From positions 325,916-389,915 of the forward strand of contig CAVRET010000001.1 of NCBI GenBank assembly GCA_963720265.1: a stretch of 64,000 nt of DNA, written 5' to 3'. The stretch comes from an uncultured bacterium. GTDB taxonomy: Bacteria; Patescibacteriota; Saccharimonadia; UBA4664. Made by a program: the position numbers and the translations under genes. The notes under the pieces were generated by a model. It was given only the letters and a program-made list of their open reading frames with translations, did not search any database and was not told where the DNA came from. The stretch's first letter is position 1. Each line of letters opens with the position of its first letter. This document shows, in pieces, positions 1 to 50,192 of this stretch.

Positions 1-219
1 CAAGCTGGATGACACCTTTGGTACTGGTTGTGGCATCACTGGATGACGGCGGTGTGGCCCAGCTGCCGTCACCGCGCAGAAAAACGCTGTTTGTGGCTGA
101 GCCACTACCAAGTTCTGAGGTTTTAACCGTGCCGTCGCTATTGTGAGCGACGGACAAAAAGTCGTTGAGGATATTACCCCAAGTACCGTCGTCTGAGCCC
201 GGAGTTGGCAGTCTCGACA
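1..219 (-). CDS. Tail-fibre-like protein, N-terminal part only. The start codon is at 219 and the gene runs off the left edge of the window. It is a paralogue of 17654..19642.
   Basis: Reverse-strand translation from ATG at 219-217 gives MSRLPTPGSDDGTWGNILNDFLSVAHNSDGTVKTSELGSGSATNSVFLRGDGSWATPPSSSDATTSTKGVIQL. This is near-identical in pattern to the N-terminus of 17654..19642 (MSRLPTPGGDDGSWGNVLNDFL...TSSKGIIEL). The FLRGDGSWATP motif is typical of phage (notably actinophage) minor tail/tail fibre proteins. Confidence 0.6.
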
Positions 220-353
220 TAAATTAGCTCACACTCACTATCATGCTTGTGTTCAGTTTAGCATGCCGCAAGCTGGGCGATAATTGCGTTGGTCGCGAAA
301 CGGTGAGCGCCCGGGGATCGCCCGGGCGGTCTCACCATTTCGCAGGTGGCGCC

Positions 354-2075
354 TTAGCTTAGGCAGCCGACGCGCCACCTGAGGCACCGGTAGAGGTTGA
401 GGAACCCGAGGGCGTCGAAGGTAGTCTCCGAGTTAGTCGCGATTATCCCGTTGTACTCAAGTGGTGTTAGACTCGAGTGCTTGAGCTTCAGGGCAATCGC
501 TATCACGAGTCCAGGGGTGGTGGGATTCGTGAACTTGAACCCGGGTATCCACGACTCGAGGAATCCGCCGGCCTGTCCGGGCCGGGTGTAGGTTACCCCC
601 GTGTCGGCGTGGATTTTTCCGTTCGCGCCAATCTGGGTAGCGACTATCGCTGCGGCTGCGGCGCCGGCAAACTGGCGGGCCAGCGCGGCGACTTGCGGCG
701 ACAGCTGCTTGTAGTAGACGTAGCCGAGTTGGGCCTCGAGTGCACCAAATACCGAGGTCCTAATACTGCTCAGCTCACCACAATTAAACGGCTCGCATTT
801 GGGCACGCCGTAACCGGTTCGGTTGAACTGGCCCTGCAGGTGCCAGGCGATTTGAGCCGGCGTACCACCCTGCAGGAAATCGCCGATGATCGGCCAGTCC
901 TGACCGCCGGGTATCGGGTAGTTGACGTCATGGTGCTTCATGAGTACCGTTAGCGCCATCCATCCCTGCAGGAACGGATCGAGCTCTCCGGTCTCGATGT
1001 ACAGACCCTCGAACAAGCATACCTTAGAGTGGTATGCATAGGCATACTGGTTCGAGGCTGCGATGTGTTGGCAGTCCGGGTAGGCCTTGGGGTTAATCGG
1101 CATGTCGTCCGGCAGGTTGCTGACGTTGGTAACGAACAGCGGCGCCCGCAGGTCGAATCCCGGCTCGTAGTTGTTGGCGCGCATGAAGTTGGCCAACCGT
1201 GCGGCCCAGGCCGGCATCTTACCGTACCCGTTCCAGTAGAGGTAGGCCTCCTGGGTGGCGTGTCTCACCGTAAACCGCAGCGACTTCAGTAGGTATTGAC
1301 TGCTGTCGTTGAAGGTGAACGGTCCCAGGCCGGCGTTGCTTCCTGAGGCGAGTGGCTCTAGGAATTGCTTGTCGAGATAGAGCTTGGCACTTTCCTTGAC
1401 GCTGAGCGGCTGGACTTGCAACTGCCACTGGGTCTTGGTGTAGGCCCAATTGACGGTTATACGTAGGGTGACCGCATTCTGCATGGCAGGCGACGAAAAG
1501 CTGACCGTGTAGTAGTCATGCGTCGCGTCGAAGCTGTCGTCCGTGAGGCTCGAGGCCGGGTAGTCCGTGTCTGGAATTTTCTCGTCCTGGCCGAGCAGCG
1601 TCCAGGTTCCCTCCGTTACGAACATGAGTCGCAGCGGCAGGGCCGAGAACTCGCTCTGAACGGCCTGCTGGTTCGGCAGCAGTTTGAGCAGAGCCTTGGC
1701 GAACTGGTTGCCTCCCGTGATTGCATCATCGACCGCCTTGAGCGGCGGAGGTTTGAGCATCGGTGCGGCAGCGCTGTTGTTGCCCCAGTCGCGCACTACG
1801 ACTGCGCCCAAGGGTATCCCGCCGAAGATAGTTGCCAGCGGCATGATGATGGTGACAGCGTAGCGCCAGCGGCGGAAGATCCCGCCTACGGTTCGCCGGA
1901 ACCTTCTTTGCTTGCGCAGTCCTTCAATCCTGGGCAGCGTACCGGTCGCGGTGTGACCAGGTAGTTCGCGTCGAAGTCGCCTTGGCGGCTCACCCGGGCG
2001 TCGTCTCCTCGGAAACCAGCCTGTGCGCTGCCTGGGGCCTTCTCGGCGGCCTCTTCGTAGCCGTCCTCTTACCAT
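354..2075 (-). CDS. Hypothetical secreted/membrane-anchored protein. Start is uncertain; the ORF is open to 2144, with candidate starts at 2075 or 1844.
   Basis: 596-codon minus-strand ORF. The Arg-rich first ~90 aa look like out-of-frame GC noise. It is followed by a basic stretch plus hydrophobic anchor (RKQRRFRRTVGGIFRRWRYAVTIIMPLATIFGGIPLGAVVV) and then a large non-repetitive domain. No family recognised. Confidence 0.55.
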   Translation of the reverse strand: MVRGRLRRGRREGPRQRTGWFPRRRRPGEPPRRLRRELPGHTATGTLPRIEGLRKQRRFRRTVGGIFRRWRYAVTIIMPLATIFGGIPLGAVVVRDWGNNSAAAPMLKPPPLKAVDDAITGGNQFAKALLKLLPNQQAVQSEFSALPLRLMFVTEGTWTLLGQDEKIPDTDYPASSLTDDSFDATHDYYTVSFSSPAMQNAVTLRITVNWAYTKTQWQLQVQPLSVKESAKLYLDKQFLEPLASGSNAGLGPFTFNDSSQYLLKSLRFTVRHATQEAYLYWNGYGKMPAWAARLANFMRANNYEPGFDLRAPLFVTNVSNLPDDMPINPKAYPDCQHIAASNQYAYAYHSKVCLFEGLYIETGELDPFLQGWMALTVLMKHHDVNYPIPGGQDWPIIGDFLQGGTPAQIAWHLQGQFNRTGYGVPKCEPFNCGELSSIRTSVFGALEAQLGYVYYKQLSPQVAALARQFAGAAAAAIVATQIGANGKIHADTGVTYTRPGQAGGFLESWIPGFKFTNPTTPGLVIAIALKLKHSSLTPLEYNGIIATNSETTFDALGFLNLYRCLRWRVGCLS

Positions 2076-2091
2076 CGTGGCTCCTGGACTG

Positions 2092-2460
2092 TTAAGTTGC
2101 GGGTTCCTGACCGGCAGTGTCGGACGATGCTGGCGGGTCGCCATTCGGACTTTGCCCGTTGGCGCGTTTCGTTGCCCTGTGACTCCAGAGGATGGCGAAT
2201 ATTACGCCGAGGACGGCTCCCGCCCATAGGGCCACGTTGCTGAGATAGAACGCGGTGTGGGGCCCGCTGTAGGTTTGGATGCCGCCGGTCTGCGTGACAC
2301 CGATTTCGCCGGCTGCGGCAATGGCGAAACAAGCCAACGTGAGGGTCCCAGAGTGGCGGTACAACCAGCTGAGCGTGCGCCTAACACTCCGGCGCGGTGG
2401 CCTGGGCGGCCGCGCCCGATCACCCGGGGCCATTGCGGACCTCGGTGGTGTGACTGGCAT
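2092..2460 (-). CDS. Small putative membrane protein with two hydrophobic helices.
   Basis: 122-aa ORF with two hydrophobic segments (LTLACFAIAAAG ; VALWAGAVLGVIFAILW). The GC-rich context makes a spurious ORF possible. Confidence 0.3.
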   Translation of the reverse strand: MPVTPPRSAMAPGDRARPPRPPRRSVRRTLSWLYRHSGTLTLACFAIAAAGEIGVTQTGGIQTYSGPHTAFYLSNVALWAGAVLGVIFAILWSHRATKRANGQSPNGDPPASSDTAGQEPAT

Positions 2461-2564
2461 GGATTTCTCCCTCCTAGTGCCAGATGGGAACGCGCTTGTA
2501 GTTTGAAATATAATGATTTATATGTCAATACGTAACGATGCGAGCGCCAGGACTTTTGTTCGGT

Positions 2565-4016
2565 TTACTGCGGGCGGCGGGTGCGCCGCCAACGGGCGCT
2601 GAGGCGGTCGTACCACGTTTGACGGGGTTGCTCTGGTGTGCCGTGATCTGCATCCTCGGGACCGACTTGTGCCTGCGATATGAATGGTTGCGGCGCGGCT
2701 GGCTCGGGCGAAGCCGGCTGAACAAGCTTAGCCGGCCCAGCGGATGTCAAAAGATCGGTGCGCTCAGTGTCCACTCCCCTGGTCCTGGCCCCTTGCTCGG
2801 CCATAGTACTAGGCTGACCTCGTAGCGGTAACCCGGCTCCTGTAAATCCGGGAGTGGCCGGCGCCTCCGCGGCCTCTGGTGGCAGTCTGGGGGCCGGTAC
2901 TGGCGGTACTGCTTCTGCTCCTCGCGTAGTATCAGTATGTGACGCTTCCGTTGAGGCTGGGCGTCGGCCATACGTGCCGTCACGGACGCCGTTTGCGACT
3001 TGTTTCCATTCAGCTTCGCTTCTCACGCTCACGTCGTGCCGGTAGGGAGGTGCGAAATCTGCCACGTTGTCGATATCATTGAAACGTTGTCGTTGGCTGC
3101 CGGTAGTTATCGTCTGGGGATATCTTTCGGAGGGGGGTACTGGCTTTGGAGCCGGCCTGTGCTGCTCGGGCGAGGTTTCTTGCAACTCCCCTTGCGTGCT
3201 GATACCAGGGTCGTCATGGTGCACTTCATGTACTTCGGCGTCGACGGGAGCAACGATGGCGTCATACTGCTGCTTGCCTCTGACTCTGGCTTCGGCGGTT
3301 CTGGCTTCAATTTCTGCTCGATGTTGCTCATCATCCGTTTGTGTAGCTTGGCCGTCGACGTTGGCGTCATGGCTTTCGGCGAGCGCGTGGCGGGCTTGAT
3401 GATAGGCTTTGTTGTACTTCTTTTGCCACTCCGTATTGGGATTACCGAACTGGGCGGGGTGGCGATAAAGTGCGTCGCGCTTGGAGAAGCCATACTTACC
3501 GTCCATATCTGTTGGTGGCACTTCGGGAATCGGGGCGGGGGCAACGGGTTCAACATTGGCCTCGGCCTCTACTTGTACCTGTATGGCTCGATAAACAGCT
3601 TCCCGGGCGGCATCAATCGTGGTCGCATCTCCGCCCAGCTTGGCTTCTGAAAAATCGGCTTGGGCGGCGCGCACGTCATCGTTGCCCGGCATATGCAACA
3701 AATAGTCGTCGCTCTTGAGCTGTTCAATTGCCTCTCTGGCGGCTGCTAATTGGTGCTCGCCAAGCAGCCCGATCAGTGCGTCACGCGCCTCAATTTTGGC
3801 CAGTGGGTCGTCTCCGGCCTTGGCTGCTCGTAGGAGCTCCTGAGCGGCGACAATGGTTTCATCTCCTGTGGCCTCCAGTAGTACCTTGTCAACTTGCTCA
3901 AACTCTCTTTCAACATTGGAAAAGTCAAAATCTTGCCCGTCGCGCCGGTGTTTGGCAGTGTGGTGGTGGTCTGCCTCGTCCGCACTTGGGCCTGGGCCGT
4001 GAATTGTTTCAGTCAT
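2565..4016 (-). CDS. Hypothetical acidic low-complexity protein, ~483 aa. An alternative start at 4040 exists.
   Basis: Long minus-strand ORF. An SD-like AAGAGGGGA lies 6-13 nt upstream of the ATG at 4016. The protein is rich in Ala/Glu/Asp/Pro/His. No recognised domain. Confidence 0.5.
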   Translation of the reverse strand: MTETIHGPGPSADEADHHHTAKHRRDGQDFDFSNVEREFEQVDKVLLEATGDETIVAAQELLRAAKAGDDPLAKIEARDALIGLLGEHQLAAAREAIEQLKSDDYLLHMPGNDDVRAAQADFSEAKLGGDATTIDAAREAVYRAIQVQVEAEANVEPVAPAPIPEVPPTDMDGKYGFSKRDALYRHPAQFGNPNTEWQKKYNKAYHQARHALAESHDANVDGQATQTDDEQHRAEIEARTAEARVRGKQQYDAIVAPVDAEVHEVHHDDPGISTQGELQETSPEQHRPAPKPVPPSERYPQTITTGSQRQRFNDIDNVADFAPPYRHDVSVRSEAEWKQVANGVRDGTYGRRPASTEASHTDTTRGAEAVPPVPAPRLPPEAAEAPATPGFTGAGLPLRGQPSTMAEQGARTRGVDTERTDLLTSAGPAKLVQPASPEPAAPQPFISQAQVGPEDADHGTPEQPRQTWYDRLSARWRRTRRPQ

Positions 4017-4065
4017 GCCTGATCCCCTCTTGTTAAGCATAAGTATAACACTAGCGGCGTGTCAT

Positions 4066-5202
4066 CTAGAAAAGCGGCGGCCGCTCTCCCTGCCCTTGCA
4101 ATTGGTTACCGCCAGTACTCGAGTTGTCAAAAAATAATGGCGGGTTCAAATAGAGCGCTGGGTTCATAATAATGACCTCACCCGACGCGGCCGGGGGTGG
4201 GGGTGTCGGCGACGGCGATGGTGACGGCGATGGTGACGGTGTGGGGACTGGTGTCGGTGACGGTGTTGGTGCCGGCGTCGGCGAGGGTGTCGGCGGCGGT
4301 GCGACTGCCGCAAAGCTGTCAGTATTCCCGCAGCGCCGGTTGATTACGATTTGACCGGACGGGACGTTAAAAACGATGGAATGCCTAGCTTGGGCGGCTT
4401 CCTCTCGCATTTCTTCGTCGTGGTCCCAGTCGACTGAAGAAGTATTGGTATGAGTTTGAAGGGAAACTGATGCCGGTGCAGCCACGTCCCACTGAACTTC
4501 GTGATTAGCGTCAGCTTGCAGTACTTCCTGTGACCAGGTACTAAATTCATTGCGCGCATCCTCGATCCCAGCCTGTACGTTATTATATGGTCCGGTGCTG
4601 GCGTTAACTTGGCTGGCGAACAGATTGCCGACATCGTAGGTCGTGTACGGCCCGCCGACCATGGTGAGCACGATCCACGATGCCCCGAGGATTCTGCCGT
4701 CGTAATACTGGCAGGCATCATAATTTGGAATAGATTCTGATGGTTGGACGAACTCTGCATCAAAGTTGCAACCCGCTTGGGTGTAGTTCAAGTAATCGCC
4801 AATGAAATTTACGAATGCCTGGGCAGAGCCGGCTTGCCCCTCTGTGGTATCAGGAAATGCCCACTTATCTAGTCCATCCGAGCCGAGTGGATCGACGTAA
4901 TCCCATAGCCCGCACTCAGATGGTCCCGTAATGTCGGCGTCAGTATTTTGGAAAGCGGCACATTCGTTTCCGGCATTGGGGGCTCCGGCGTTGGCAAAAA
5001 CCCCGGTCGATCCGTAGCCGCCATTCGTAATACTTGCGCCAAAGTCGATTCCGGAAAAATAAGCCTGATTCAAACATCGACCGTCGAGAGATGTCGGGTA
5101 GGTTGTGCAATCTTTCGCCGCGCTAGCGCTCGGCCAACCATATCCGAGGGGCGATAGGTCGAATAAAAGAGCTAACATCATACACGCAAATATTCGTTTC
5201 AC
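4066..5202 (-). CDS. Secreted protein with a Pro/Thr/Ser-rich linker.
   Basis: N-terminal signal peptide MKRIFACMMLALLFDLSPLGYGWPSASA. Cys-containing domain. C-proximal linker PTPSPTPAPTPSPTPVPTPSPSPSPSPSPTPPPP. The start ATGA overlaps the stop of the upstream gene at 5199. Confidence 0.7.
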   Translation of the reverse strand: MKRIFACMMLALLFDLSPLGYGWPSASAAKDCTTYPTSLDGRCLNQAYFSGIDFGASITNGGYGSTGVFANAGAPNAGNECAAFQNTDADITGPSECGLWDYVDPLGSDGLDKWAFPDTTEGQAGSAQAFVNFIGDYLNYTQAGCNFDAEFVQPSESIPNYDACQYYDGRILGASWIVLTMVGGPYTTYDVGNLFASQVNASTGPYNNVQAGIEDARNEFSTWSQEVLQADANHEVQWDVAAPASVSLQTHTNTSSVDWDHDEEMREEAAQARHSIVFNVPSGQIVINRRCGNTDSFAAVAPPPTPSPTPAPTPSPTPVPTPSPSPSPSPSPTPPPPAASGEVIIMNPALYLNPPLFFDNSSTGGNQLQGQGERPPLF

Positions 5203-5726
5203 GGTTGACCTTCCAGATTTTTAATGGTGGCGTTAAGGTCATCAATGTCGCCGGACTCGGCCGGGTTCGCTTGCGCTATTTTTAAAGCGTTTTTGAAATA
5301 TTGGAGCGCCAAAGTGTTATTGCCTTCGGCGGCCTCCGTTTGGCCGATAGTCTCCGCGTCAAATTCGGTCAGGTGGCCACCGTCGTCAGCGACGGCCTGC
5401 TGGTAGTATTGAACCGCTTTAGCATTATTATGATCATCGACTGCCAGATTGCCTAGCAGTACAAGCGGTTTGTAACGGTCCTGCTTGGGAGGATTTGTAG
5501 CTAGATAATTTTTTAGCGTGCTGGCTTCGTCTGTATAGTTTAGTTCTTGGTCCAGGTAGTCAGCCTGCGACATCACCGAATTATATTGATCTGGCGCGGA
5601 AGTACTCTGGTTTATATAGTTGAATGTCAGCCATCCGCCGGCACCAATCGCTAAAATGACGCACAAGACAACGACAAATGTCCAATTTGGAATAAATCTT
5701 CTTTTGTGATCGTCATCTAGCCGCAT
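5199..5726 (-). CDS. Membrane-anchored TPR-like/helical-repeat protein.
   Basis: Start taken at MRLDDDHKRRFIPNW. Single TM segment FVVVLCVILAIGAGGW. Ala/Leu/Asn/Gln-rich helical repeats (AVQYYQQA, LALQYFKNALKIAQ) resemble TPR-like repeats. Confidence 0.55.
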   Translation of the reverse strand: MRLDDDHKRRFIPNWTFVVVLCVILAIGAGGWLTFNYINQSTSAPDQYNSVMSQADYLDQELNYTDEASTLKNYLATNPPKQDRYKPLVLLGNLAVDDHNNAKAVQYYQQAVADDGGHLTEFDAETIGQTEAAEGNNTLALQYFKNALKIAQANPAESGDIDDLNATIKNLEGQP

Positions 5727-5842
5727 TGGATAGCCTTTGGCGTTACCACACGAAGTCCTGCACTGCACCCTAATAGTATAGTGTTAATGCTTGTCGGCCG
5801 CTGCGTCGCAACTGATTGTATCTTAATCCTAGCCACGGCTCG

Positions 5843-7801
5843 TTACGATCCTAACCTATGCAAAAGGATATTTGGCGCCATGAGGAAGCCGTAGACGGTC
5901 AGTGTGTTATCGCACTGCGGCGGCATAGGCGGGGAGGCAGTGTAACAGGTATCAATGGTGTTATCGCTAAACAGCATTGCATCCACCTGTGTTGCCGGAT
6001 CATTAATGTCGATTGATCCGCCGGCGAGTATGCCTAGCGACGGCAAAGTCGACAAATCAGCGCCGCTGGCGCTACCGGAGACGTTTATGTTCCCGGAAAT
6101 CGTTACGTCGCCGTTTACGACTATCGTTAACGGGAGGTTTTGCGAGTACGTTCCTTGAAGGTTCACCGGGCCTTGAATATACGCCACGGCTTTACCGTTG
6201 ACTAACGTGACGTTTGGCGCGCTGTTGAAATCGGTGCCAAGATCGTACGTCCCGCTGGCCATCCAGCTGGCCCCTGTCGGCATATTAGTCTGGGCATAGT
6301 TATACAAATCCGGCCGGCACACCGTGGAGTAACCGCCGTTTGGCCCTGCGTTCCCCAGGTCCAGGGAGCTGTCACCGGCAATGCCGTTTGAGCCAATATT
6401 ATTGATTAAGCCTGACGCCGATACGACGTACTGACCGTATGATTCGGCGTTGGAGTTGGTATTTATATACCCCGAGGCGTCTTGCGGTCCGCCGCAGACT
6501 CCGCCCCCGGCGTGGATATCGCTGCCCATGCCAACCACTGACGGATAGCGCACCGACGAGATGGTGAATGTCACGGTGGTATGCAGAATGGTGCCGTTTT
6601 GATCTGCAGGATAGTAGTAGACGTCGAACGTGATTGTCCCGGTGGACGCTGAAGCCGGTACTAAAAAGGAAAGTTCAGTGGTACTTAACGTGCCGTTTGG
6701 AAACGGAATGGTAGCCCAGCACCAATTGGGCTTGGTTGGCTTAGGAGGGATGGCCGATGTCTGAGAAAAGTTATACTGGCCGCCTCCATACGACAATGGC
6801 TGCATATTAGGATCTGAACAGGTGGTGGCACACGGTGCAGTGACCCCTGAGGCCGGCAAATCCACTTCCAGTTCACCGGCATCAGAGGGGTCGGGCCCAT
6901 TGTTTTGCAGAGCTAGATCAATGGTGCCGTTTTGTCCGGGTGCTAGCGTGGGATTAACCGCGGTGGCAGTTAAGTTCATGCTGTAGCCGGTCGGCGCCAA
7001 CGGTTCGAACGCGCCGGCTATATTGCCGCATTGGCGGGCGATTCGAAAATAACTGCCGTCGGGATTCGAAAACACAATAGAATCAAATGTGTATAAGTGA
7101 CCATCCGAGCGCCATGCGACATCTTTTGCATCACCCGGGTCAGCTTGTCCAGGGGGGTCGGTGATGCAGGTGGTTTGCCCCGAGTAGCACACATGTGCGG
7201 TATCAGGTGAGCCCGCTGGGTAGGGTTGGGCCGCTACGTCCCAGTTGACTTTGCCCGCAGCATCATAAGCATTAACGTCCTGTTCCCATTGGGTCAGATG
7301 CTGCTGCGCGTAGGCGACCCCGGCATGCCAGTCGCAAGTCGTCGTGGTGGCGCTACCTGTGTACCACTCGCACAGTCCAGGTCCTGTCTCGCCCAGCATG
7401 GCATCAATAATGAAGCCAGCACCGACGGCACCGTAGTAGTACTGGGTGTCATTATCCGATTGGGACAGGTAAGTCGATAGCTCGTTTTCAAATGAGGCAG
7501 CGGTCGTGTTAGTGGGAAAATCACTGGTGGTGCACGTCGGACACGGCGGGAGTACCCCGTTGCCCGGCACGGCATCGGCATAGGCGCCGTAACTATAAAA
7601 ATTTTGATTCGTAAAGTAGCCGTCGCAGCCTTGTCGGCCCAGTATGGTAAATCCGCAATAAAAGCCATAGTTTGCGCCGGTGGGGGCGGGGTCGGCTTTG
7701 GCGGTTTTTGGCATCAACGCAGCAGATAGGACCGTGAGCGTTACGGTAACGATAAGTAGCCCAAGTGCGTACCAGTGGCGATGTTTAAGCTTCGACGTCA
7801 T
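5843..7801 (-). CDS. Secreted 652-aa protein, possibly adhesin-like with a beta-helical C-terminus.
   Basis: Signal peptide MTSKLKHRHWYALGLLIVTVTLTVLSAALMPKTAKA. Cys-rich N-domain weakly similar to the 4066..5202 product (VNWDVAAQPY vs VQWDVAAPAS). C-terminal Gly/Asn/Ser-rich beta-strand-like repeats (VNGDVTISGNINVSGSASG). Confidence 0.65.
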   Translation of the reverse strand: MTSKLKHRHWYALGLLIVTVTLTVLSAALMPKTAKADPAPTGANYGFYCGFTILGRQGCDGYFTNQNFYSYGAYADAVPGNGVLPPCPTCTTSDFPTNTTAASFENELSTYLSQSDNDTQYYYGAVGAGFIIDAMLGETGPGLCEWYTGSATTTTCDWHAGVAYAQQHLTQWEQDVNAYDAAGKVNWDVAAQPYPAGSPDTAHVCYSGQTTCITDPPGQADPGDAKDVAWRSDGHLYTFDSIVFSNPDGSYFRIARQCGNIAGAFEPLAPTGYSMNLTATAVNPTLAPGQNGTIDLALQNNGPDPSDAGELEVDLPASGVTAPCATTCSDPNMQPLSYGGGQYNFSQTSAIPPKPTKPNWCWATIPFPNGTLSTTELSFLVPASASTGTITFDVYYYPADQNGTILHTTVTFTISSVRYPSVVGMGSDIHAGGGVCGGPQDASGYINTNSNAESYGQYVVSASGLINNIGSNGIAGDSSLDLGNAGPNGGYSTVCRPDLYNYAQTNMPTGASWMASGTYDLGTDFNSAPNVTLVNGKAVAYIQGPVNLQGTYSQNLPLTIVVNGDVTISGNINVSGSASGADLSTLPSLGILAGGSIDINDPATQVDAMLFSDNTIDTCYTASPPMPPQCDNTLTVYGFLMAPNILLHRLGS

Positions 7802-8346
7802 AGGTCTACCGGCTCATTAGTTTGGATTGCGTGGATATACTGCTCGTATTGTTGCGGCGTTCCGCCCAGCGGATCAGCTCCTTTGGCAGATGAAATGGTT
7901 ACAAGTTGCTGCAAGAGTGGAATCAGCTGCCGGCGTTGTCCGGCGCGATATCCCGCCGAAACTTCACCTTGGAGCGCAGCTTCCTTGACGTCACTATTAT
8001 CGAGTTTGATCGATGTTTGGTAGTCCTGCATGGCCGCCGAATATTGTTTAAGGTTGACGCGCGCACTGGCCCGGTCAAGGTAAACAACGGCAAGCGTCTC
8101 ATTGTTAATCTTGTAGGTCCCGGCTTTCTGCCCATTAATCAGCTGGGTAGCGACATTCTCGGTCGTTTGGAAGTCCACACCATTTGCGTCACTCGTTAGT
8201 TGAGCTTGCAGTTGCTGCTGCTTAGTTACCCTCTGATGAGCTCGCAAGGTAACAATAAATAAGCCGATGCTGGCAATACAGAGCACAAGCAAACCCGCCA
8301 TCAGCCAGCCGGCCACATGGTGACGCCGATAGTCTACTATCGGCAT
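7798..8346 (-). CDS. Membrane-anchored hypothetical protein (N-in, single TM). First gene of the 8346->4066 operon.
   Basis: 182-aa ORF. Basic N-terminus then TM segment WLMAGLLVLCIASIGLFIV. Stop overlaps the start of 5843..7801 by 4 nt. Confidence 0.55.
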   Translation of the reverse strand: MPIVDYRRHHVAGWLMAGLLVLCIASIGLFIVTLRAHQRVTKQQQLQAQLTSDANGVDFQTTENVATQLINGQKAGTYKINNETLAVVYLDRASARVNLKQYSAAMQDYQTSIKLDNSDVKEAALQGEVSAGYRAGQRRQLIPLLQQLVTISSAKGADPLGGTPQQYEQYIHAIQTNEPVDL

Positions 8347-10572: not shown

Positions 10573-10599
10573 TGTTAAACGCTTGTTAGGACTTTTGAA

Positions 10600-12293: not shown

Positions 12294-13802
12294 ATGGCAC
12301 GAGATAAGTTCTTTGCTATAGTGAAATTTATGGAAAAGATTGGACTTGGTTATTTAACGGCTAGTGAGTTTGTATCTAGGCGATCAAGGACACTCACAGA
12401 TGATCCAAATGCGAGGCTGAATGAAGAGCACGAAATTGGGCAATATCTTGCCAAACTTGACCCCTCCTATAGGGACGCGATCGATTCCCTCGCCAAGACA
12501 AGAGACGAACCATTATGCAAAGAGATTGATACAGTCGTTACAATCATTGCGACCCAAGAAGGTTCAAGAATTGGGCACACATTAAATTCATATCTAAACC
12601 AAGATCTAGATCCGAAATTCTTTGAGATAATTATCTATGATGACCACTCGAGTACTATTTCTCGCGATAATACCTCAGAAGAGGTAGACAAATTTAAAAA
12701 AGCCAATCCGAACATTTCCGTCATCTATGCCTATAGAGTCAGGCAAGACGATGAATTCGCCACAGTTGGTAACGCGCGAAAGTATGGTTTTGATGTGGCG
12801 CTTGCAAGAATAGACGCTCGGGGTAAAAGCAACCACGAGACTATACTGATTAGTAACGATGCCGATACTGTTGAGCTAGACAAACACTATCTTTCAGCAA
12901 TCAGGCACGAGTTTCAGGTAAATACTGCGGCAGACGCGCTCGTAACACCAAGCACAGTGCCATTATCTGCAATGCGCAAACCCAATGTCTACGCCGCACT
13001 TGCGTTGTGGGATGCCATTGATGACTTTGTTGCCAAGCAAGAACCGCGCAATCTGGAAGGCAGAAGCAGTGCTTATAGAGCGTCAATCTATGCGGCGGTG
13101 GGCGGCTATAACCCGAAAGGGAAACTGGCCGGTGACCTGGAGACGGGATTTCTGATCGCAGATGCCAGGGGCTGGGATCCTCGCAGTGTGATTCAATTCG
13201 CAAAAACAGGGCTGTTAACTGACCCACGGAGAGTGTTGGAATCTGTGGCTAGTCGTATACCAATTAATGAGATGTACTATAAATTTGTATCGAGCCCAGA
13301 GGTGAGACACGCTAATAATGCTCAATTGCTTGATATGATTCCAGATAGTTTGGATTGGGAGCTGTTCGAGGAAGACGCCGATAGCTTTTTGGCTGGTGGC
13401 GATACCGGGATGTATAAGTGGCGAGGTGAAAGATTCAAAACTGACTTTAAGCAAGCGATGGGCAAAATCGGCGCTCAGTTTGTGACCAAGGGCAACCGGC
13501 TGTATTTAACCAACATCGACCAACTTATAGACAACTACAAGCATGATTTTGGTGATACACCACAGATCATTCATTCAACCCGACGGCCCTACGATCGGGA
13601 TAGGATAAAAAAAATTAAATTATTCTTCTCAACAGTCTCCGATAGCGCCATAGCCTGTCGAAAAAAACTTGCCGACCAGATTGCACAGGACCTCGAGCTC
13701 GCAAATCAACGAAATGATCTTAAACAAATAAGACACCTTCAAGGACAGTATGAAAGGTTTGCCGGGCATTTATACAAGCAACATAGCCGGCTAAGCAGTT
13801 AA
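12294..13802 (+). CDS. Glycosyltransferase family 2-like protein, 502 aa, in an AT-rich islet.
   Basis: VVTIIATQEGSRIGHTLNSYLNQDLDPKFFEIIIYDDHSS resembles the GT2 N-terminal signature (xIIIPtyN...FEIIvvDDgS). ILISNDADT supplies a DxD-like motif. Local GC is clearly lower than the flanks. Confidence 0.55.
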   Translation: MARDKFFAIVKFMEKIGLGYLTASEFVSRRSRTLTDDPNARLNEEHEIGQYLAKLDPSYRDAIDSLAKTRDEPLCKEIDTVVTIIATQEGSRIGHTLNSYLNQDLDPKFFEIIIYDDHSSTISRDNTSEEVDKFKKANPNISVIYAYRVRQDDEFATVGNARKYGFDVALARIDARGKSNHETILISNDADTVELDKHYLSAIRHEFQVNTAADALVTPSTVPLSAMRKPNVYAALALWDAIDDFVAKQEPRNLEGRSSAYRASIYAAVGGYNPKGKLAGDLETGFLIADARGWDPRSVIQFAKTGLLTDPRRVLESVASRIPINEMYYKFVSSPEVRHANNAQLLDMIPDSLDWELFEEDADSFLAGGDTGMYKWRGERFKTDFKQAMGKIGAQFVTKGNRLYLTNIDQLIDNYKHDFGDTPQIIHSTRRPYDRDRIKKIKLFFSTVSDSAIACRKKLADQIAQDLELANQRNDLKQIRHLQGQYERFAGHLYKQHSRLSS

Positions 13803-15265
13803 AATTTTTTCTCTCCGCCGCCGCCACGTTCCGGCCCCTGAGGTCTTTCTGATTCCAGCATTCGTTTAAGAGCCATATCTATTTCTGGTACAAAATGACG
13901 TGCCTCATCGCTCTCACGAAGCTCAACCGGCGAGGCAAGACCTTCTATCTCGTGAATTATGGGCCGGTCTTTATCGTAAAACGCCTTGTCCAGAGCTAGC
14001 TCATTGATCTTAGTTACTTGCCTGAATTCAAGGTGCCCAATCTCGTTGCCGGCTGCGTTGCCAATGTACAACTTATCTGCCTCGAGCCCCTCGATAAATA
14101 GTCCTCCTATGCGCGCCTTATTGATAAGCGCTCTTTGCATAATTGATTCTCCAAAATGAAATTCCTGCATAACCCCTTCGTGCAAGTTTAGTAAACCTAG
14201 CCTGGCTTGCTCACAGTACATTTTCTCTACGCCCTCACCCCTTGAAAAATACATTTCGCCGATGTGCGACTCGCCCATGCGAAGTTCGTGTGCCCTGATT
14301 TCGCCTGCATTAAATTGACGACAGCTCAGACGGTCTAAGTACACTGCCTGCGCAGCCCCTCTTTCACCGAATATGTTCTCTATACTGGCACTGCCAAAGC
14401 GGATATCCCGAAAGTTTCCGTCAGCCAAAAAGCAGTCGCGAAATTGAGCTCCCTGAAACTCCATCTCATCGAATCTGCTTTCTGAGAAATCTACCAACTC
14501 AGCTTTGCTCTCCCCGAGATATACTCTCAATGCAGAAAAGTCGCCCCTACCAAAATTGAGCGTCTCAAGTTCAACCTCTATATGAAGTTCGCCCCGAGTA
14601 TCTTCACCGGTTTCTGGAACCACCCTGTAAGCTCCGAGTCTCGAAAGATCTGGATCTTCGGCTAAATAGTGGAGAAACTCGTTTGGCGTGATGACAAGTG
14701 CCTCTCTTTCGAGATCGCTATCTTTTTCTGCTCGCGAGTCACTTCCCTCCCCAGCGATTCCCGGCTCTTCTGAATCAATGAGCCGATGTGTATTTGCAGC
14801 TAAACTCTCCGGGTTGAATCCCGAGGAATTTAGCCGTTCGAGATATACAATACCGGCTCTTAAGCGGCCACCCTCGATGGTCCCTATTGCCGCATCGTCG
14901 AAGAATACTTCTGGCGCTGTAAACTCATCAAAGTGGCACTCCGCTAGTTTTGCTTGATCAAAGTAGAGCCGGCTTGCACGAGCGGCAGAAAATAACAACT
15001 GCTCAGCTTCCAAATCATCAAAATACAAATCGGTAAATCTAGAAGTTCCAAAGTCTACAGATTCGGCTTTTGTTTTCGACAAAGCTACAAAGCCATCAGT
15101 AAAATCACCATTACCAAAATGTACACTCCGGCCTTCAAAATCGATATCGATAGGGAAAATCGTTTGACCCTCCCTGGGCACAACCCTATATTCTCCCAGT
15201 CTCCTTAGATCAGGATCTTGAATCAATTCGGTCCATAATTCCTTAGTTGTAAGTTCTCGAATCAT
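13799..15265 (-). CDS. Pentapeptide-repeat protein with an internal tandem duplication.
   Basis: Start set at MIRELTTKELW; the ORF's upstream extension overlaps tRNA-Trp. Two homologous halves begin DPDLRRLGEYRVVP and DPDLSRLGAYRVVP. Runs of 5-residue repeats with F/L at position 5 (ESVDF GTSRF TDLYF DDLEA EQLLF ...). Confidence 0.65.
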   Translation of the reverse strand: MIRELTTKELWTELIQDPDLRRLGEYRVVPREGQTIFPIDIDFEGRSVHFGNGDFTDGFVALSKTKAESVDFGTSRFTDLYFDDLEAEQLLFSAARASRLYFDQAKLAECHFDEFTAPEVFFDDAAIGTIEGGRLRAGIVYLERLNSSGFNPESLAANTHRLIDSEEPGIAGEGSDSRAEKDSDLEREALVITPNEFLHYLAEDPDLSRLGAYRVVPETGEDTRGELHIEVELETLNFGRGDFSALRVYLGESKAELVDFSESRFDEMEFQGAQFRDCFLADGNFRDIRFGSASIENIFGERGAAQAVYLDRLSCRQFNAGEIRAHELRMGESHIGEMYFSRGEGVEKMYCEQARLGLLNLHEGVMQEFHFGESIMQRALINKARIGGLFIEGLEADKLYIGNAAGNEIGHLEFRQVTKINELALDKAFYDKDRPIIHEIEGLASPVELRESDEARHFVPEIDMALKRMLESERPQGPERGGGGEKKF

Positions 15266-15300
15266 TTTCCGCTGATATCTCCAAACATTATGAATATTTC

Positions 15301-15376
15301 TGGCAGGGGTGGCAGGGCTCGAACCCGCGACAACCGGTTTTGGAGACCGGTGCTCTACCAACTGAGCTACACCCCT
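15301..15376 (-). tRNA. tRNA-Trp (anticodon CCA), 3' CCA encoded.
   Basis: Reverse complement AGGGGTGTAGCTCAGTTGGTAGAGCACCGGTCTCCAAAACCGGTTGTCGCGGGTTCGAGCCCTGCCACCCCTGCCA. Cloverleaf with 7-bp acceptor, anticodon loop CTCCAAA, T-loop TTCGAGC. Confidence 0.85.
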
Positions 15377-15480
15377 ATGAAAGCTTGTATGTGGGACGGA
15401 ATTATTTTACTGCAATAGCTGGGTGTACGCCAGGCGCATTACGCTTTAGTATCTTAAGGGTAGGTTATGAGGAGGAGCAT

Positions 15481-16395
15481 ATGCTCGAACTTTCAGATGA
15501 ACGTATGCGGACAGCAGCGGCGCTTGTGCCCAAGATCGAGAACTCACGGGTGGCGATTGCGGCGCCCGGAGACGGCCCCGGGTTTTGGACTGGAGCGCCG
15601 AGCGCTGTCGAGGCTGACGGAATGATCTATCTGGCATATCGCCTGCGGCGGCCGGTGGCCCAGGGCCGCGGGCAGGGCGTGGTGATTGCGAAGTCGCGCG
15701 ATGGGGTGAAATTCGACAGTTTGGTGATGATCCGTAAGGATGATATGGATGCGGAGTCGTTAGAACGACCGGCACTTGTACGGACGGGCGATGGGAAATG
15801 GCGGCTATACGTGAGCTGCGCTACGACTGGCACTAAGCACTGGCGGGTGGAGGTGCTTGAGGCAGATGATCCGGCTAAGTTTGATGCGACTACGCGCCGC
15901 GTGGTGTTGCCGGGTGATGAGCGTTGGGCAGTGAAAGATCCCGTGATTCGGATTGCCGGCGGAGTGTGGCATTTGTGGGCATCGTGCCATCCGCTTGATA
16001 TACGAGGCCAGGAGGATCGGATGGTAACCAATTATGCCACGAGTACGGACGGTATCAATTGGAAGTGGCGGGGGACGGCACTTGATGTACGTCCGGGTCA
16101 GTGGGACGCGCGCGGCGTGCGCGTAACTGCGGTGATGATCGAGCCGTGGCAAATAACGGCATTTTACGACGGGCGGGCGACGGCCGAGGAAAACTTTGAT
16201 GAGCGGACAGGCGTGGCGGTTGGCGCCGCGCCGGGCAACCTCTCAGCAGCCGGTGACGCGCCGATTGCCGAGTCGGCCGAAGTTAAGGCGCTGCGGTATC
16301 TAGACATTGTGCCATTAATGAACGGTGGGCATAGGCTATACTACGAGCTGGCCCGGCCCAATGGTTCGCACGAGCTCAGAACTGAGCTGCGTTAG
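15481..16395 (+). CDS. Beta-propeller glycoside-hydrolase-like protein (GH43/GH32/GH130-type fold).
   Basis: Start at ATG 15481, preceded by AGGAGG. Recurring blade-like motifs: SRDGVKF, RPALVRTGDGKWRLYVS, DPVIRIAGGVWHLW, YATSTDGINWKW, FYDGRA. Confidence 0.55.
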   Translation: MLELSDERMRTAAALVPKIENSRVAIAAPGDGPGFWTGAPSAVEADGMIYLAYRLRRPVAQGRGQGVVIAKSRDGVKFDSLVMIRKDDMDAESLERPALVRTGDGKWRLYVSCATTGTKHWRVEVLEADDPAKFDATTRRVVLPGDERWAVKDPVIRIAGGVWHLWASCHPLDIRGQEDRMVTNYATSTDGINWKWRGTALDVRPGQWDARGVRVTAVMIEPWQITAFYDGRATAEENFDERTGVAVGAAPGNLSAAGDAPIAESAEVKALRYLDIVPLMNGGHRLYYELARPNGSHELRTELR

Positions 16396-16409
16396 CCGAA
16401 AGATAATCG

Positions 16410-16450
16410 CATTCTTTCTGGGGGCGCCGGTCAACGCAACCGACGCCCCC
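16410..16450. terminator. Bidirectional intrinsic terminator between convergent genes.
   Basis: ctgggggcg-ccggtcaacgcaaccga-cgcccccag hairpin followed by aattttta. Confidence 0.55.
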
Positions 16451-16457
16451 AGAATTT

Positions 16458-16973
16458 TTAGCCGTCTACTCCCTGCTCGTCCCAACTGATGTATCCAGCC
16501 ATCGTGGCAGCGGCAAGCAGCAGGATGTAGGGGTCCATGACCTCTTCGTCCGAGATGTTCAGCCGCGCCATGAGCTCGGTCCCGAGCGGTGGGCGCTTCG
16601 TATCGGATCGCCAGGATAGGTGTGTACGATCGGGGTAGCCGGTGATTTGCTCTTTGAGGAAGCCCGACTCCTCAGCTGTTAGCCTGATCGTTTTAGCAAT
16701 GCGATGCAGGCGGGCCAGGCCCGCGTCGTCGGGATACCTGTCTGCCAGTAGCTTCCAGCTGATGAACCTCCTGCTGAGGGCGATAACGAGCGCGGTGGCG
16801 ATGTTGTCGGTTTCGAACCTGACGACAATTCTCCTGCGATCTTCGCGTATGCGCTTCACTGAGCGATGCGTCATGTCAGCTATCTGGCCAATGGTGTACC
16901 CGCAGGACAGAAGTCCGAGGATGTCATTGGCGTTTATCGCCGGTATCGCGGCGACGTCGGCTTGCGGCGGCAT
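16458..16973 (-). CDS. Hypothetical protein with an N-terminal HTH-like segment (LuxR/sigma-region-4-like).
   Basis: NDILGLLSCGYTIGQIADMTHRSVKRIREDRRRI resembles a HTH DNA-binding motif. The remainder is unassigned. Confidence 0.4.
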   Translation of the reverse strand: MPPQADVAAIPAINANDILGLLSCGYTIGQIADMTHRSVKRIREDRRRIVVRFETDNIATALVIALSRRFISWKLLADRYPDDAGLARLHRIAKTIRLTAEESGFLKEQITGYPDRTHLSWRSDTKRPPLGTELMARLNISDEEVMDPYILLLAAATMAGYISWDEQGVDG

Positions 16974-17062
16974 GTCGCTACACCTCCCGGGGTGTGACGG
17001 ATTTGAGAGTCGCGTTCAGTAGGACGGGGAGCTATTTTACCCCTAGCGCGGCGAAATGTCGA

Positions 17063-17224
17063 CTATTTGGCTTCTTTGAATAAGACTTTTTTGCGCTTGA
17101 GTTTGGAATACTTGAGGGCGGTGATGCGCTCAGTGGTATTCTTGGGGTTTTTGGTAGTTGAGTAGACCATGGTGGGGTCTTCTTCCGCGCGCAGTGTGAT
17201 GACGGGGCGGTTGCGCTTAGGCAT
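17063..17224 (-). CDS. rpmG: 50S ribosomal protein L33 (Cys-less type).
   Basis: MPKRNRPVITLRAEEDPTMVYSTTKNPKNTTERITALKYSKLKRKKVLFKEAK. The core YSTTKNPKNTTERI..LKKY matches bL33 (YITTKNKRNTPDKLELKKY). SD GAAGGAG lies upstream. Confidence 0.75.
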   Translation of the reverse strand: MPKRNRPVITLRAEEDPTMVYSTTKNPKNTTERITALKYSKLKRKKVLFKEAK

Positions 17225-17420
17225 TGGGAATTTCTCCTTCTTTCGGGGTGATGCTTGAGGCAATAAAGTAAGCGAGTACGGTTGGGAACAGCCAAGTGGT
17301 GAGTGCAAGCACGATTACGATCAGGCGCACGACGGTGACGTCGATGTCGAAATAATCGGCGATACCGGCGCAGAGCCCGGTTATTTTCTTGTCCTTTTGC
17401 TTGAGCACGAGGCGCTTCAT
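17217..17420 (-). CDS. PspC-domain membrane protein.
   Basis: KKITGLCAGIADYFDIDVTVVRLIVIVLALTTW matches the PspC family signature (I.GVC.GLAeYfgiDptlVR), followed by a TM helix. Confidence 0.7.
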   Translation of the reverse strand: MKRLVLKQKDKKITGLCAGIADYFDIDVTVVRLIVIVLALTTWLFPTVLAYFIASSITPKEGEIPNA

Positions 17421-17451
17421 GGCGGCTTACGACTCCCTTAGACTAATTCTC

Positions 17452-17526
17452 TGGAGCCCAAGGTGGGGATTGAACCCACGACCCCTTCCTTACCATGGAA
17501 GTGCTCTGCCACTGAGCTACTTGGGC
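17452..17526 (-). tRNA. tRNA-Thr (anticodon GGT), CCA encoded.
   Basis: GCCCAAGTAGCTCAGTGGCAGAGCACTTCCATGGTAAGGAAGGGGTCGTGGGTTCAATCCCCACCTTGGGCTCCA. Anticodon loop ATGGTAA. Confidence 0.85.
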
Positions 17527-17597
17527 TTAGCGTACCCCGCAAACGATAGCATAAAAGGGTTACTACGGCAAGGTCTACGTTGGTGCAAAATGTTACA

Positions 17598-17625
17598 TTG
17601 CTCTTCATTGCGGTTATGCTAAAAT
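17598..17625 (+). promoter_or_regulatory. Putative sigma70-type promoter for the tail-fibre-like gene.
   Basis: TTGCTC - 16 nt - TAAAAT, about 30 nt upstream of the 17654 start. Confidence 0.35.
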
Positions 17626-17653
17626 TTAGCTGTACATGAGATGTGGAGTATAA

Positions 17654-19642
17654 ATGTCGCGACTGCCGACTCCGGGTGGAGATGACGGGTCCTGGGGCAA
17701 TGTACTTAATGACTTTCTGGGCGTTGAGCTCAATACCGACGGCACACTAAAACGGGCGTCTGAGATTGATAGTGCCTATCAGAAGCCGTCTGGTGGTATT
17801 CCAAAAAGTGATCTGGCGGCGGCGGTTCAGACGTCGCTCACAACCGCTGATGCTCAGAATGCGCTCGAACTGCAGAGTGTGCCGGTGGCCAATACGGCGC
17901 CGACGGACGGGCAGATTTTGACGTATAGCCAGGCCGGTACGACGTGGCTGCCAGCCAGTGTATCGGCATCGGCGCCTGATGCCACGACCTCAAGCAAGGG
18001 TATTATTGAGCTGGCCGGCGATTTGGGGGGCACCGCGGGAATGCCTACCGTGCCGAGCCTTACGAGTAAGGCCAATGATTCAGCTGTCGTGCACAATACC
18101 GGCAACGAAACGATCGCCGGTATTAAGACGTTCTCCAGCAGCCCGACCATACCGGCACCGAGCAATCCGACGGATGCTGCCACCAAGCAATACGTGGATT
18201 CGGCGACCGGTTCGGCGACTGCCCTCACGTGGGTGAATGTTAAGTCACTTGGTGCAGTGGGCGATTTCAACAACGACGACACGTCGGCGTTTTCGACGGC
18301 CCTTAGCACCTATGATGTTGTATATGTGCCGGCGGGCCACTACAAGCTGACCTCGGCTCTTACTCTGTCCGATAACACCATTATCGGCGACGGCGCGGAA
18401 GTTACGATAGTAGAGCAGACCAACACCTCGGCCGACGGCCTCGACGGCGTCAACCGGGCGTACGTGCGGATATCGGGCATTGAGTTTAAGGGACCGGCCA
18501 GCGGTACTGGCATTGGTATGAACCTGGACGGCTCGTCGGTCAGCTGGTATGTGTCGCTGGAAGATGTGCGTTTTGATTCCTGGGGTGCGCATGGCATTTA
18601 CGGGTTTAACGTGGTTTCGAGTTTTAAGAATGTGCTGTGCCTCAATAACGGTCTGCACGGGTTTACGTTTGACGGCTTAAGTGCAGGTGCGGCCGGTACG
18701 TCGGTGTCGCTGGTAACATGTTATGCGCGCAATAACGGTAAGGCCGGCTACTACATCTTCAACATGACTTATTGCTCGCTGACCGGTTGCGCGTCGGATC
18801 TGAACGGTATCGGTTACTCGCTTGATACGTGTGCGAGTATCACACTTACCGGCTGTGGTGCGGAGACGCCGCAGAACAACGGCCAGGCCAACTACCCCGG
18901 AATCGGTTATAAGGTGTCGGGCAGTAGCGCGGTGGTGTTGACCGGCTGTTACCTGGCGGCTAACCTAGGTGTCGGCTACTGGATTACGGGCGGCAGCGTG
19001 GACGTAACACTTATTGATCCCCACGAGGTGCTGCCAACAGGTACGGCCACATCATCGATCACGGTTGATTCGGGCTGCCGCGCGCAGATCATCGGTGAGT
19101 CGCTCAGTACAGCCAAGAGCTTGAGCGCCGGTACGACAACCCAGATTGGTGCAACTGATAAATCATCGACCTTTAGCGGCAATGTGACTGTGGACGGCAA
19201 CTTGTCGGTATTGGGGGTGGGCCAAGGCCAGTTTGCGAGTAAGGCGGCCGACCAATCAAACAGCACGACATCGATGACCGGCGACACCGATCTAACGGTG
19301 CCGCTGGCGGCTGGTTGCACGTACACCGTTGAATTGCGCGGGATTTTCACGGCTGCATCCGGCGGTGATATTAAGCTGTCGTGGGAGGCGTTGCCGGCGG
19401 GTTCGACGTTCACGTGGTCGGGAGCATCGAGCGTAAGTGGGACCGGATCGGTGTTTAGCGGTACTGCGACCGACATTTGGACCGGCTCAGGTTCGACGGA
19501 GAAAGCGTTTTGGTATAGCGGATTATTGGTGAACCCAACGAATGCCGGGACGCTGCAATTTGAATTTGCTCAAAACACTTCAAACGCGACGGCGACGGTC
19601 ATGAAAGCCGGCTCGTGGATGAGCGTCGTACGCGTGGCTTAG
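17654..19642 (+). CDS. Phage tail-fibre / tailspike-like protein with a pectate-lyase-superfamily beta-helix domain.
   Basis: N-terminus MSRLPTPGGDDGSWGNVLNDFL plus ATKQYVD collar-like motif. LGAVGDFNNDDTSAFSTAL....VYVPAGHYKL matches the Pectate_lyase_3 / GH55-type signature. Repeated GC-x-L/G beta-helix rungs (LTGCASDLNGIGYSLDTCASITLTGCGAE). Confidence 0.7.
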   Translation: MSRLPTPGGDDGSWGNVLNDFLGVELNTDGTLKRASEIDSAYQKPSGGIPKSDLAAAVQTSLTTADAQNALELQSVPVANTAPTDGQILTYSQAGTTWLPASVSASAPDATTSSKGIIELAGDLGGTAGMPTVPSLTSKANDSAVVHNTGNETIAGIKTFSSSPTIPAPSNPTDAATKQYVDSATGSATALTWVNVKSLGAVGDFNNDDTSAFSTALSTYDVVYVPAGHYKLTSALTLSDNTIIGDGAEVTIVEQTNTSADGLDGVNRAYVRISGIEFKGPASGTGIGMNLDGSSVSWYVSLEDVRFDSWGAHGIYGFNVVSSFKNVLCLNNGLHGFTFDGLSAGAAGTSVSLVTCYARNNGKAGYYIFNMTYCSLTGCASDLNGIGYSLDTCASITLTGCGAETPQNNGQANYPGIGYKVSGSSAVVLTGCYLAANLGVGYWITGGSVDVTLIDPHEVLPTGTATSSITVDSGCRAQIIGESLSTAKSLSAGTTTQIGATDKSSTFSGNVTVDGNLSVLGVGQGQFASKAADQSNSTTSMTGDTDLTVPLAAGCTYTVELRGIFTAASGGDIKLSWEALPAGSTFTWSGASSVSGTGSVFSGTATDIWTGSGSTEKAFWYSGLLVNPTNAGTLQFEFAQNTSNATATVMKAGSWMSVVRVA

Positions 19643-50186: not shown

Positions 50187-50192
50187 CGTGTA

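Follow-up and report, generated by a model that had tools for sequence, protein, structure and literature searches.

A gene at positions 17654 to 19642 of the 64,000-nt stretch of DNA analysed here (the window; all coordinates count from its first letter, and negative results for the locus hold within it) encodes a 662-amino-acid (aa) protein with the domain architecture of a phage tailspike. The protein belongs to a very large, previously undescribed family in which a strictly N-terminal module of 33 residues (the N-module) is followed by divergent distal parts of phage type. The same module heads genes inside phage tail gene clusters, while the cellular genes stand in surroundings that are not those of a prophage. 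The novelty lies in phage receptor-binding proteins (RBPs) that make up a multigene family of cells, built on one fixed adaptor. The interpretation that we favour, and to which we give about an even chance, is that these are orphan, chromosomally fixed RBPs of phage type, present in several scattered copies, whose swappable distal parts probably bind or degrade the envelope of an actinobacterial host.

To judge from its genes, the window is a piece of a Saccharibacteria (TM7) chromosome and not of a prophage, since it includes SecY, RpoA, the DNA polymerase III delta' gene (holB) and rpmG, and its RpoA shares 82-83% identity with proteins assigned by name to Candidatus Saccharimonadia. Genes for a pseudouridine synthase, TrkA and WhiB and four tRNA genes are also present. 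A protein identical to the 662-aa product is on record, on a 567,794-bp contig.

Domain structure of the 662-aa protein

The complete family member and its parts are laid out as follows (all on the forward strand; ORF, open reading frame; pLDDT, predicted local distance difference test score).

17654..19642, +: complete family member, predicted tailspike-type receptor-binding or depolymerase-like protein of 662 aa (ORF, Pfam, AlphaFold2 model, fold matches)
17654..17752, +: N-terminal module, aa 1-33 (MSRLPTPGGDDGSWGNVLNDFLGVELNTDGTLK; profile, invariant residues, position in viral contigs)
17753..18217, +: shaft of fibre repeats, aa 34-188 (Pfam; the low pLDDT is what a monomer model of a fibrous segment would be expected to give)
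17975..18055, +: DUF5907 repeat, aa 108-134 (27.4 bits against a cut-off of 27, marginal)
18083..18148, +: BppL_N-like segment, aa 144-165 (Pfam, 28.4 bits)
18218..19216, +: right-handed parallel beta-helix of the pectate-lyase fold, aa 189-521, putative depolymerase domain (PF12708, PF13229; pLDDT above 90)
19217..19639, +: C-terminal beta-sandwich, aa 522-662, probable distal binding domain (AlphaFold2 strands, pLDDT 73-89)

The initial annotation had read a tail-fibre N-terminus and a pectate-lyase-superfamily beta-helix from short motifs in this protein. All of them are present: PTPGGDDGSWGNVLNDFL (aa 5-22), ATKQYVD (aa 175-181) and GAVGDFNNDDT (aa 200-210). The helix is confirmed by a match to PF12708 (formerly Pectate_lyase_3) at aa 193-263 (3e-11, 43.9 bits against a cut-off of 27), and Beta_helix PF13229 matches aa 290-453 (2.5e-7, 30.9 bits against 25.9). 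Homology to tail fibres and tailspikes proved real by sequence as well as by fold. Over 333 aa (E 4e-43) the helix is 37% identical to gp76 of Streptomyces phage GiJojo, a protein annotated as a tailspike whose gene sits between the major capsid and tail-terminator genes. Within the shaft, aa 39-183 share 35% identity with a Curtobacterium phage protein, the minor tail protein of Yappy, and the C-terminal domain shows 30-33% identity to the minor tail protein of Streptomyces phage Beuffert and to a protein of phage Lannister. When the AlphaFold2 monomer model (mean pLDDT 80.7; above 90 in the helix at aa 190-510) was compared with the PDB, the top matches were phage depolymerase tailspikes, namely Klebsiella Depo32, CBA120 TSP2 and the K2-2 TSP (Foldseek probability 1.00), followed by Det7 and phi29 gp12. 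The best viral fold match (BFVD) is a protein of Gordonia phage Sitar, and the fold of the C-terminal domain resembles that of the tail fibre of Streptomyces phage Lannister. Among solved structures, no significant sequence match was found for either the 662-aa protein or the N-module profile.

The protein thus resembles phage tailspike depolymerases (GiJojo gp76, Depo32, CBA120 TSP2, phi29 gp12) in its PF12708 and PF13229 helix, in the order of anchor, shaft, helix and C-terminal domain, and in the presence of conserved acidic residues on adjacent rungs. It differs from them in that its gene lies alone on a Saccharibacterium chromosome, with no virion genes nearby, and belongs to a multi-copy cellular family. 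Of 18 homologues compared, gp76 among them, at least 16 retain each of the residues D209, D382, E404 and E458; four cysteines are likewise conserved. The sequence conservation of D382, E404 and E458 is compatible with an active site, a suggestive pattern and no more. The helix is probably a polysaccharide depolymerase, and by analogy with tailspikes the protein may form trimers.

Helices of the pectate-lyase fold occur in cellular enzymes too, and AlgE epimerases and RbmB are among the fold matches. One could therefore picture an enzyme that remodels the cell's own wall or exopolysaccharide and resembles phage proteins in nothing but a shared fold. Glycan genes found nearby would suit such a role: a GT2 and a GH32-like ORF lie in the window, and an epimerase gene lies next to an orthologue (P0002, see below). 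We nevertheless hold this self-directed role to be very improbable. The likeness goes beyond the fold, extending to the sequence of a virion tailspike (the 37% identity reported above) and to N- and C-terminal modules of phage type; the family exchanges its distal domains as RBPs do; and the signal peptide normally needed by a cell-wall enzyme is missing.

The N-terminal module in cells and in viruses

A second member of the family enters the window at its left edge:

1..220, -: 5' end (73 codons; translation of 2-220) of a second family member, containing SATNSVFLRGDGSWATP; the rest lies beyond the window
122..220, -: N-module of this left-edge gene, 76% identical to the 662-aa protein over 33 aa only

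The start of this gene had been placed at 219; its ATG is the complement of 218-220, which moves the start to 220. The two genes had also been described as copies of each other. Their likeness is limited to aa 1-33 (76% at the amino acid level), beyond which they diverge, so that they are better described as two paralogues with a common module. Their first 99 nt are identical at 74 positions and the differences are mostly synonymous, pointing to purifying selection on the module, and the DNA upstream of the two genes is unrelated. The FLRGDG[ST]W motif of the left-edge product had been taken as a mark of actinophage minor tail proteins, an assignment that was not borne out: in a tblastn search with the 73 aa against 50,697 phages, the stretch matched only tail fibres of Synechococcus and Achromobacter phages, at E=0.6. 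The motif is rare in the family itself (2 of 77 and 3 of 120 members). The N-module of the left-edge gene, by comparison, is 59-62% identical to N-termini in Streptomyces phages BRock, Alone3 and LuckySocke and 50% identical to that in GiJojo.

Nearly all of the 120 best homologues begin with M-x-R-L-P-x-P-G-x-D-x-x-x-W-G-x-x-L-N-D-F-L and then diverge. Thirteen positions are invariant in 78 members (R3, L4, P5, P7, G8, D10, W14, G15, L18, N19, D20, L22 and G30). An N-module profile matched 6,651 clusters (50% identity) among 1.84 billion representatives, 5,161 of them at E<=1e-10, and nearly all profile matches fall at residues 1-41. Genomes were scanned with a degenerate DNA pattern of the module, one genome per GTDB species; the counts given here and below are among the matches listed, and none of the 120 loci overlaps the window. 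Ninety-nine of 120 carry the label Saccharibacteria or Saccharimonad*; the others are other members of the candidate phyla radiation (CPR), unnamed or probably mis-binned metagenome-assembled genomes (MAGs), and a few Actinobacteria (Gordonia aichiensis, Mycolicibacterium agri, Pseudonocardiaceae). In 112 of 124 matches the third residue of the ORF is arginine. Several MAGs contain from two to at least four copies, on different contigs or widely spaced.

Behind the N-module, the 78 complete members carry what, by Pfam assignment, is the typical RBP toolkit: DUF5907 (23 members, best E 4e-19), BppL_N (13), a pectate-lyase helix (10), collagen (6) and GDSL esterase (3), along with phage tail repeats, the Peptidase_S74 chaperone, Phage_tail_C and the K1-lyase rider. 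No Pfam model matches the N-module itself. DUF5907 and BppL_N, the latter the N-terminal domain of the lower baseplate protein of lactococcal phage TP901-1, match 22-27 residues of the shaft only, and neither covers the module. No mention of DUF5907 was found in the literature searched, and none of the few papers there that bring up both Saccharibacteria and tail fibres appears, judged by title and abstract, to describe the N-module family. A "tail fibre-like protein" reported to recur near the pam pilus operon in CPR bacteria and Saccharimonadia (bioRxiv 10.64898/2026.03.03.709456) is similar by description; the preprint gives no sequence, and its identity with the family is unproven. A link to the pam operon or ATP synthase was not seen in our material, no ATP-synthase gene being present within the 8-kb blocks around the 120 listed family loci.

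Strict-module genes are found in cultured Actinobacteria too, in Gordonia aichiensis NBRC 108223 (locus L056) and Mycolicibacterium agri (L053), as well as at locus L039. The Gordonia copy (735 aa, in a locus of 61.5% G+C) matches tail-fibre PHROGs; five neighbours that were tested gave no named phage function, and one of them matched a PHROG of unknown function.

With the strict pattern, a single IMG/VR contig was recovered, and the module appeared to be nearly absent from viruses. This view was overturned by a relaxed pattern (LPxxGxDxxxWGxxLN), which gave at least 120 rows in viral contigs. Among the 124 viral matches listed, 68 represent a different, widespread phage-fibre N-terminus (NYxxNLPxVGGD..WG..LN.NW..LDTLL), and 17 begin directly with the complete module of Saccharibacteria type, in which Pro7 is usually replaced by V, I or A; the contigs bearing these 17 range from 33 to 71% G+C. 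In one of them (L186) the module gene starts 5 nt after the gene of a 786-aa tape-measure-like protein, which aligns along 90% of its length with the tape measures of lactococcal 936 phages and also matches that of Gordonia phage BetterKatz (E 3e-40). The arrangement in three further contigs (L187, L157 and L182) resembles that in L186, with the module gene in the tail module. This position directly after tape-measure genes identifies the N-module as a genuine phage tail-attachment adaptor, the binding to the tail itself being deduced from gene order.

The siphophage tail-tip or "minor tail" proteins in these viral contigs (L186, L187, L157) share the full N-terminal module of 33 aa with the cellular family, and the homology between certain viral members and Saccharibacteria members extends over their whole length (33% identity over 593 columns, E 9e-70). 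The viral proteins differ in that their genes follow a tape-measure gene in structural modules, and in that position 7 is usually V, I or A and not P. Their N-modules are 54-70% identical to that of the window protein, which is within the diversity of the family itself. In one case the relation extends past the module gene: the genes directly downstream of the family gene in a viral contig of 70% G+C (L178, 7435-8670) and in a MAG (L101, 2296-4524) are homologous (29% identity, E 9e-10), a hint that some members may belong to a two-gene cassette.

The only records of cultured phages with the module are six from Streptomyces phages of the Borockvirus group, where its gene follows tRNA-Lys in a tRNA array and has variable distal parts. 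These proteins (GiJojo gp34, BRock gp186, gp41 of Alone3 and LuckySocke) resemble the window family in their module (50-62% identity) and in the location of the gene directly after a tRNA gene, as for the window gene; they differ in being phage genes placed in a tRNA array outside the structural module. GiJojo gp34 shares with the window protein the module, a "YTKPGTGIP" repeat and a pectate-lyase helix, and the distal part of the BRock protein is collagen-like. The annotated starts of GiJojo gp34 (L006, 5956-7398) and BRock gp186 (L128, 3791-4738) lie 15 and about 70 codons, respectively, upstream of the module Met, and the annotated BRock gene overlaps tRNA-Lys. The true start of both is probably the module Met.

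An adaptor that is a genuine virion part keeps open the main rival to our interpretation, in which the RBPs act in trans with a phage, prophage, tailocin or particle resembling a gene transfer agent that is encoded elsewhere. They might then switch the host range of that particle, or poison or divert its assembly as a defence, and would be released by lysis. Such a role would agree with the position of the module, at the tail-attachment end of real phage proteins encoded directly after tape-measure genes; with the lack of a signal peptide, as in virion proteins; with the presence of several paralogues sharing one adaptor, as in multi-tailspike phages; with the overlap in diversity between viral and cellular N-modules; and with the reported existence of phages targeted by spacers of both Saccharibacteria and Actinobacteria (PMC10746230). 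It has to contend with the finding that no tail, baseplate or capsid gene lies near the approximately 120 listed family loci or in the window, and with the conservation of the adaptor over a whole bacterial class, which would be unusual for a phage-specific interface. On balance we consider action in trans unlikely, while ranking it first among the alternatives. If it were true, it would amount to an unrecognised host-phage arrangement in CPR bacteria.

Genomic context and proposed function

The immediate surroundings of the 662-aa gene are formed by tRNA-Thr and rpmG on one side and by a giant gene on the other:

17452..17526, -: tRNA-Thr(ggt) (ARAGORN), 127 nt upstream of the 662-aa gene and divergent from it; left border of the block holding the fibre gene and giant genes
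19724..33103, +: giant surface-protein gene (4,459 aa; ORF), with an N-terminal membrane anchor (hydrophobic segment) and Kelch as the only Pfam match

The initial annotation regarded the fibre genes as orphans and not as prophage cargo, noting that no capsid, terminase, portal or integrase gene was present. Pfam and PHROG searches upheld the latter statement for the window, and the former is supported both there and across the family. No integrase, terminase, portal, capsid or tail gene was found around the 17654 gene, nor in the 8 kb of the window that adjoin the left-edge gene, where the upstream genes encode membrane proteins with TPRs, secreted products rich in Cys and proteins of low complexity. 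The window ORFs between 354 and 16973 gave no phage-family match, and no window ORF except the fibre gene matches the module-bearing viral contigs. Elsewhere in the family, genes of core metabolism and for TatC, ABC transporters and histidine kinases are the nearest neighbours of 77 members, and a further 150 neighbours yielded no recurrent hallmark gene. Among 272 neighbours from about 100 genomes, no phage hallmark figures in the 25 most frequent Pfam or PHROG families, and clustering of all 881 neighbouring ORFs revealed no recurrent phage-like family. Three neighbours that matched a "portal protein" PHROG were rejected as NUDIX hydrolases aligning with the NUDIX-like part of phrog_15528 (positions 524-628); with its "portal protein" label, this PHROG can yield false prophage signals.

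Orthologues 71-80% identical to the window protein lie in unrelated cellular contexts: one (P0003) by tatCA and sulfate-activation genes, another (P0002) by an epimerase gene and ABC transporters. A third (P0005, 75% identical; L129, 10001-11773) is inserted into a type IV pilus cluster that encodes PilB, PilC and five N_methyl pilins, and runs on the strand opposite to it. Among the 124 other family genes listed, about seven have a tRNA gene within 200 nt upstream (L008, L024, L049, L065, L091, L105 and L087), around ten times the chance expectation; the family start then follows the tRNA by 70-180 nt, usually on the same strand.

That the genes are ordinary prophage cargo or remnants of decaying prophages, with no cellular role, would account for the phage type of all their domains, the differing contexts of orthologues and the closeness (within 200 nt) of these seven or so genes and of the window gene to tRNA genes, which are classic integration sites. 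We judge it quite improbable nonetheless. The ORFs are intact; the mostly synonymous differences between N-modules point to purifying selection; the invariant residues hold in 78 members and the family fills 6,651 clusters; housekeeping neighbours on both sides leave no room for a prophage; and no integrase or other hallmark gene was found in the window or among the family neighbours. Intact frames, selection on the module, housekeeping neighbours and family size together render prophage debris an unlikely source of the family.

A depolymerase-like role on the envelope of a partner cell is the most economical reading of these data. The nearest phage relatives of the helix, the C-terminal domain and the N-module are all proteins of actinophages; Actinobacteria are the hosts on which cultured Saccharibacteria live, and epibiotic growth requires surface proteins that bind or degrade glycans (PMC10633639). 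We therefore favour a host-envelope role over the alternatives. Each member would consist of the strictly N-terminal module of 33 residues, a fibrous repeat shaft and an exchangeable distal part, and would trimerise like a tailspike. The N-module would either hold the protein on a conserved partner outside the cell or serve in its export. The protein could then bind and cleave a glycan in the cell envelope of its actinobacterial host as the epibiont attaches, with different paralogues conferring different target specificities. Host choice and attachment of Saccharibacteria and other CPR epibionts are largely unexplained, only pili and a few glycan-binding surface proteins having been implicated so far. 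The family runs to thousands of members, several of them in a single genome, and its distal domains are akin to actinophage ones; it provides a concrete candidate set of host-specificity determinants. It also raises the question of where a virion-attachment adaptor docks in a cell with no tail genes nearby.

A bolder version of the host-envelope role, which we regard as doubtful, is that RBP trimers plug by way of the 33-residue adaptor into a conserved surface machine of the epibiont, set its host range, and swap distal domains with phages of the same actinobacterial hosts. Electron cryotomography of Mycosynbacter has shown a 9-nm tube or "lance" with a density at its tip, of a composition not known, and this observation underlies the proposal. 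Speculative candidates for the machine are this lance with its tip "barb", a type IV secretion system pilus and the Pam pilus.

Several observations weigh against a host-directed surface role. The N-terminus of the protein, MSRLPTPGGDDGSWGNVLNDFL, lacks a hydrophobic core and thus offers neither a Sec signal nor a membrane anchor, and the same fixed N-terminus is found in about 100 homologues. Nor is there a Tat signal: a single invariant arginine (R3) is followed by LPxPG, with no twin arginine and no hydrophobic region. Without a signal peptide, the "surface enzyme" of the initial annotation is unproven. A folded trimer, presumably of 3 x 70 kDa, would have to leave the cell with neither kind of signal. 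No docking partner was found, and no neighbour is conserved family-wide among the approximately 120 listed loci. Moreover, the occurrence of 71-80% identical orthologues in unrelated contexts implies that the genes move, as phage cargo does. The use of the module in virions, which keeps explanations in trans open (see above), belongs on the same side of the balance.

The tatC gene adjoins the family gene in 14 of the 120 listed loci (for example L017, L032, L045, L054, L103, L122 and L116), often on the same strand and once overlapping it. A link to Tat export was rejected, in view of the missing RR motif and of the fact that TatC, at 14 of 120, is no more enriched than EF-Tu, at 10 of 120. 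The similar frequency of EF-Tu suggests that the adjacency of tatC may be plain synteny of particular orthologue groups, a further point against the surface role. A general link to type IV pili was likewise dismissed: the window holds no prepilin motif, a pilin-like ORF occurs in one of the 120 listed loci, and a pilus cluster is found only at P0005. A family of secreted proteins, mostly of about 620-640 aa and with a signal peptide followed by a "YG..YG.C.Y...C" motif, adjoins family genes at seven loci (L022, L031, L044, L066, L075, L104 and L113).

The giant genes and other parts of the window

The fibre gene had been said to head the giant-gene locus. This is correct as a description of the window, where the gap between the two genes is 81 nt and contains no terminator-like site; the arrangement is not conserved in orthologues. 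A functional link to the giant protein was rejected, the latter having no sequence similarity to the fibre protein and the adjacency being absent in orthologues. There are two giant genes (19724-33103 and 34911-49142), whose products share their first approximately 190 residues (58.5% identity) and an internal block of about 240 aa. Each is followed by a convergent gene (33114-34466 and 49156-50148), and these two are paralogues of each other, with 34% identity. The ORF at 49156-50148 overlaps tRNA-Tyr and tRNA-Thr, so that its true start must give a shorter gene. The fibre gene, both giant genes and their convergent neighbours make up a block of about 32 kb, beside rpmG, between tRNA-Thr(ggt) at 17452-17526 and the tRNA-Tyr/tRNA-Thr(tgt) pair (49949-50187). 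The block looks like an insertion into a conserved tRNA cluster.

To the left of the fibre gene, tRNA-Trp (15301-15376) overlaps the ends of two mechanically listed ORFs, 13799-15361 (-) and 15340-16395 (+), whose listed bounds are for this reason not the true gene bounds. The reverse strand at 4066-8346 carries a tandemly duplicated module, each unit composed of a TPR membrane protein (7798-8346; 5199-5768) and then a secreted Cys-rich protein (5843-7801; 4066-5202). The two Cys-rich proteins are 27-29% identical to each other, and neither matches Pfam or PHROG. Positions 1-4040 have a G+C content of 0.60 and an AT skew down to -0.26. In this segment, the ORF at 2565-4040 specifies an acidic, Pro-rich product of low complexity, and the product of the ORF at 354-2144 has an Arg-rich start followed by a membrane segment; the exact product of the latter is not on record, and its listed start is probably too far upstream. 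At the other end of the window, a gene for a WhiB-family transcription factor lies at 54288-54806 on the reverse strand (PF02467, 9e-15). WhiB proteins are typical of Actinobacteria and their phages, and this gene is possibly one more sign of exchange with the phylum of the hosts.

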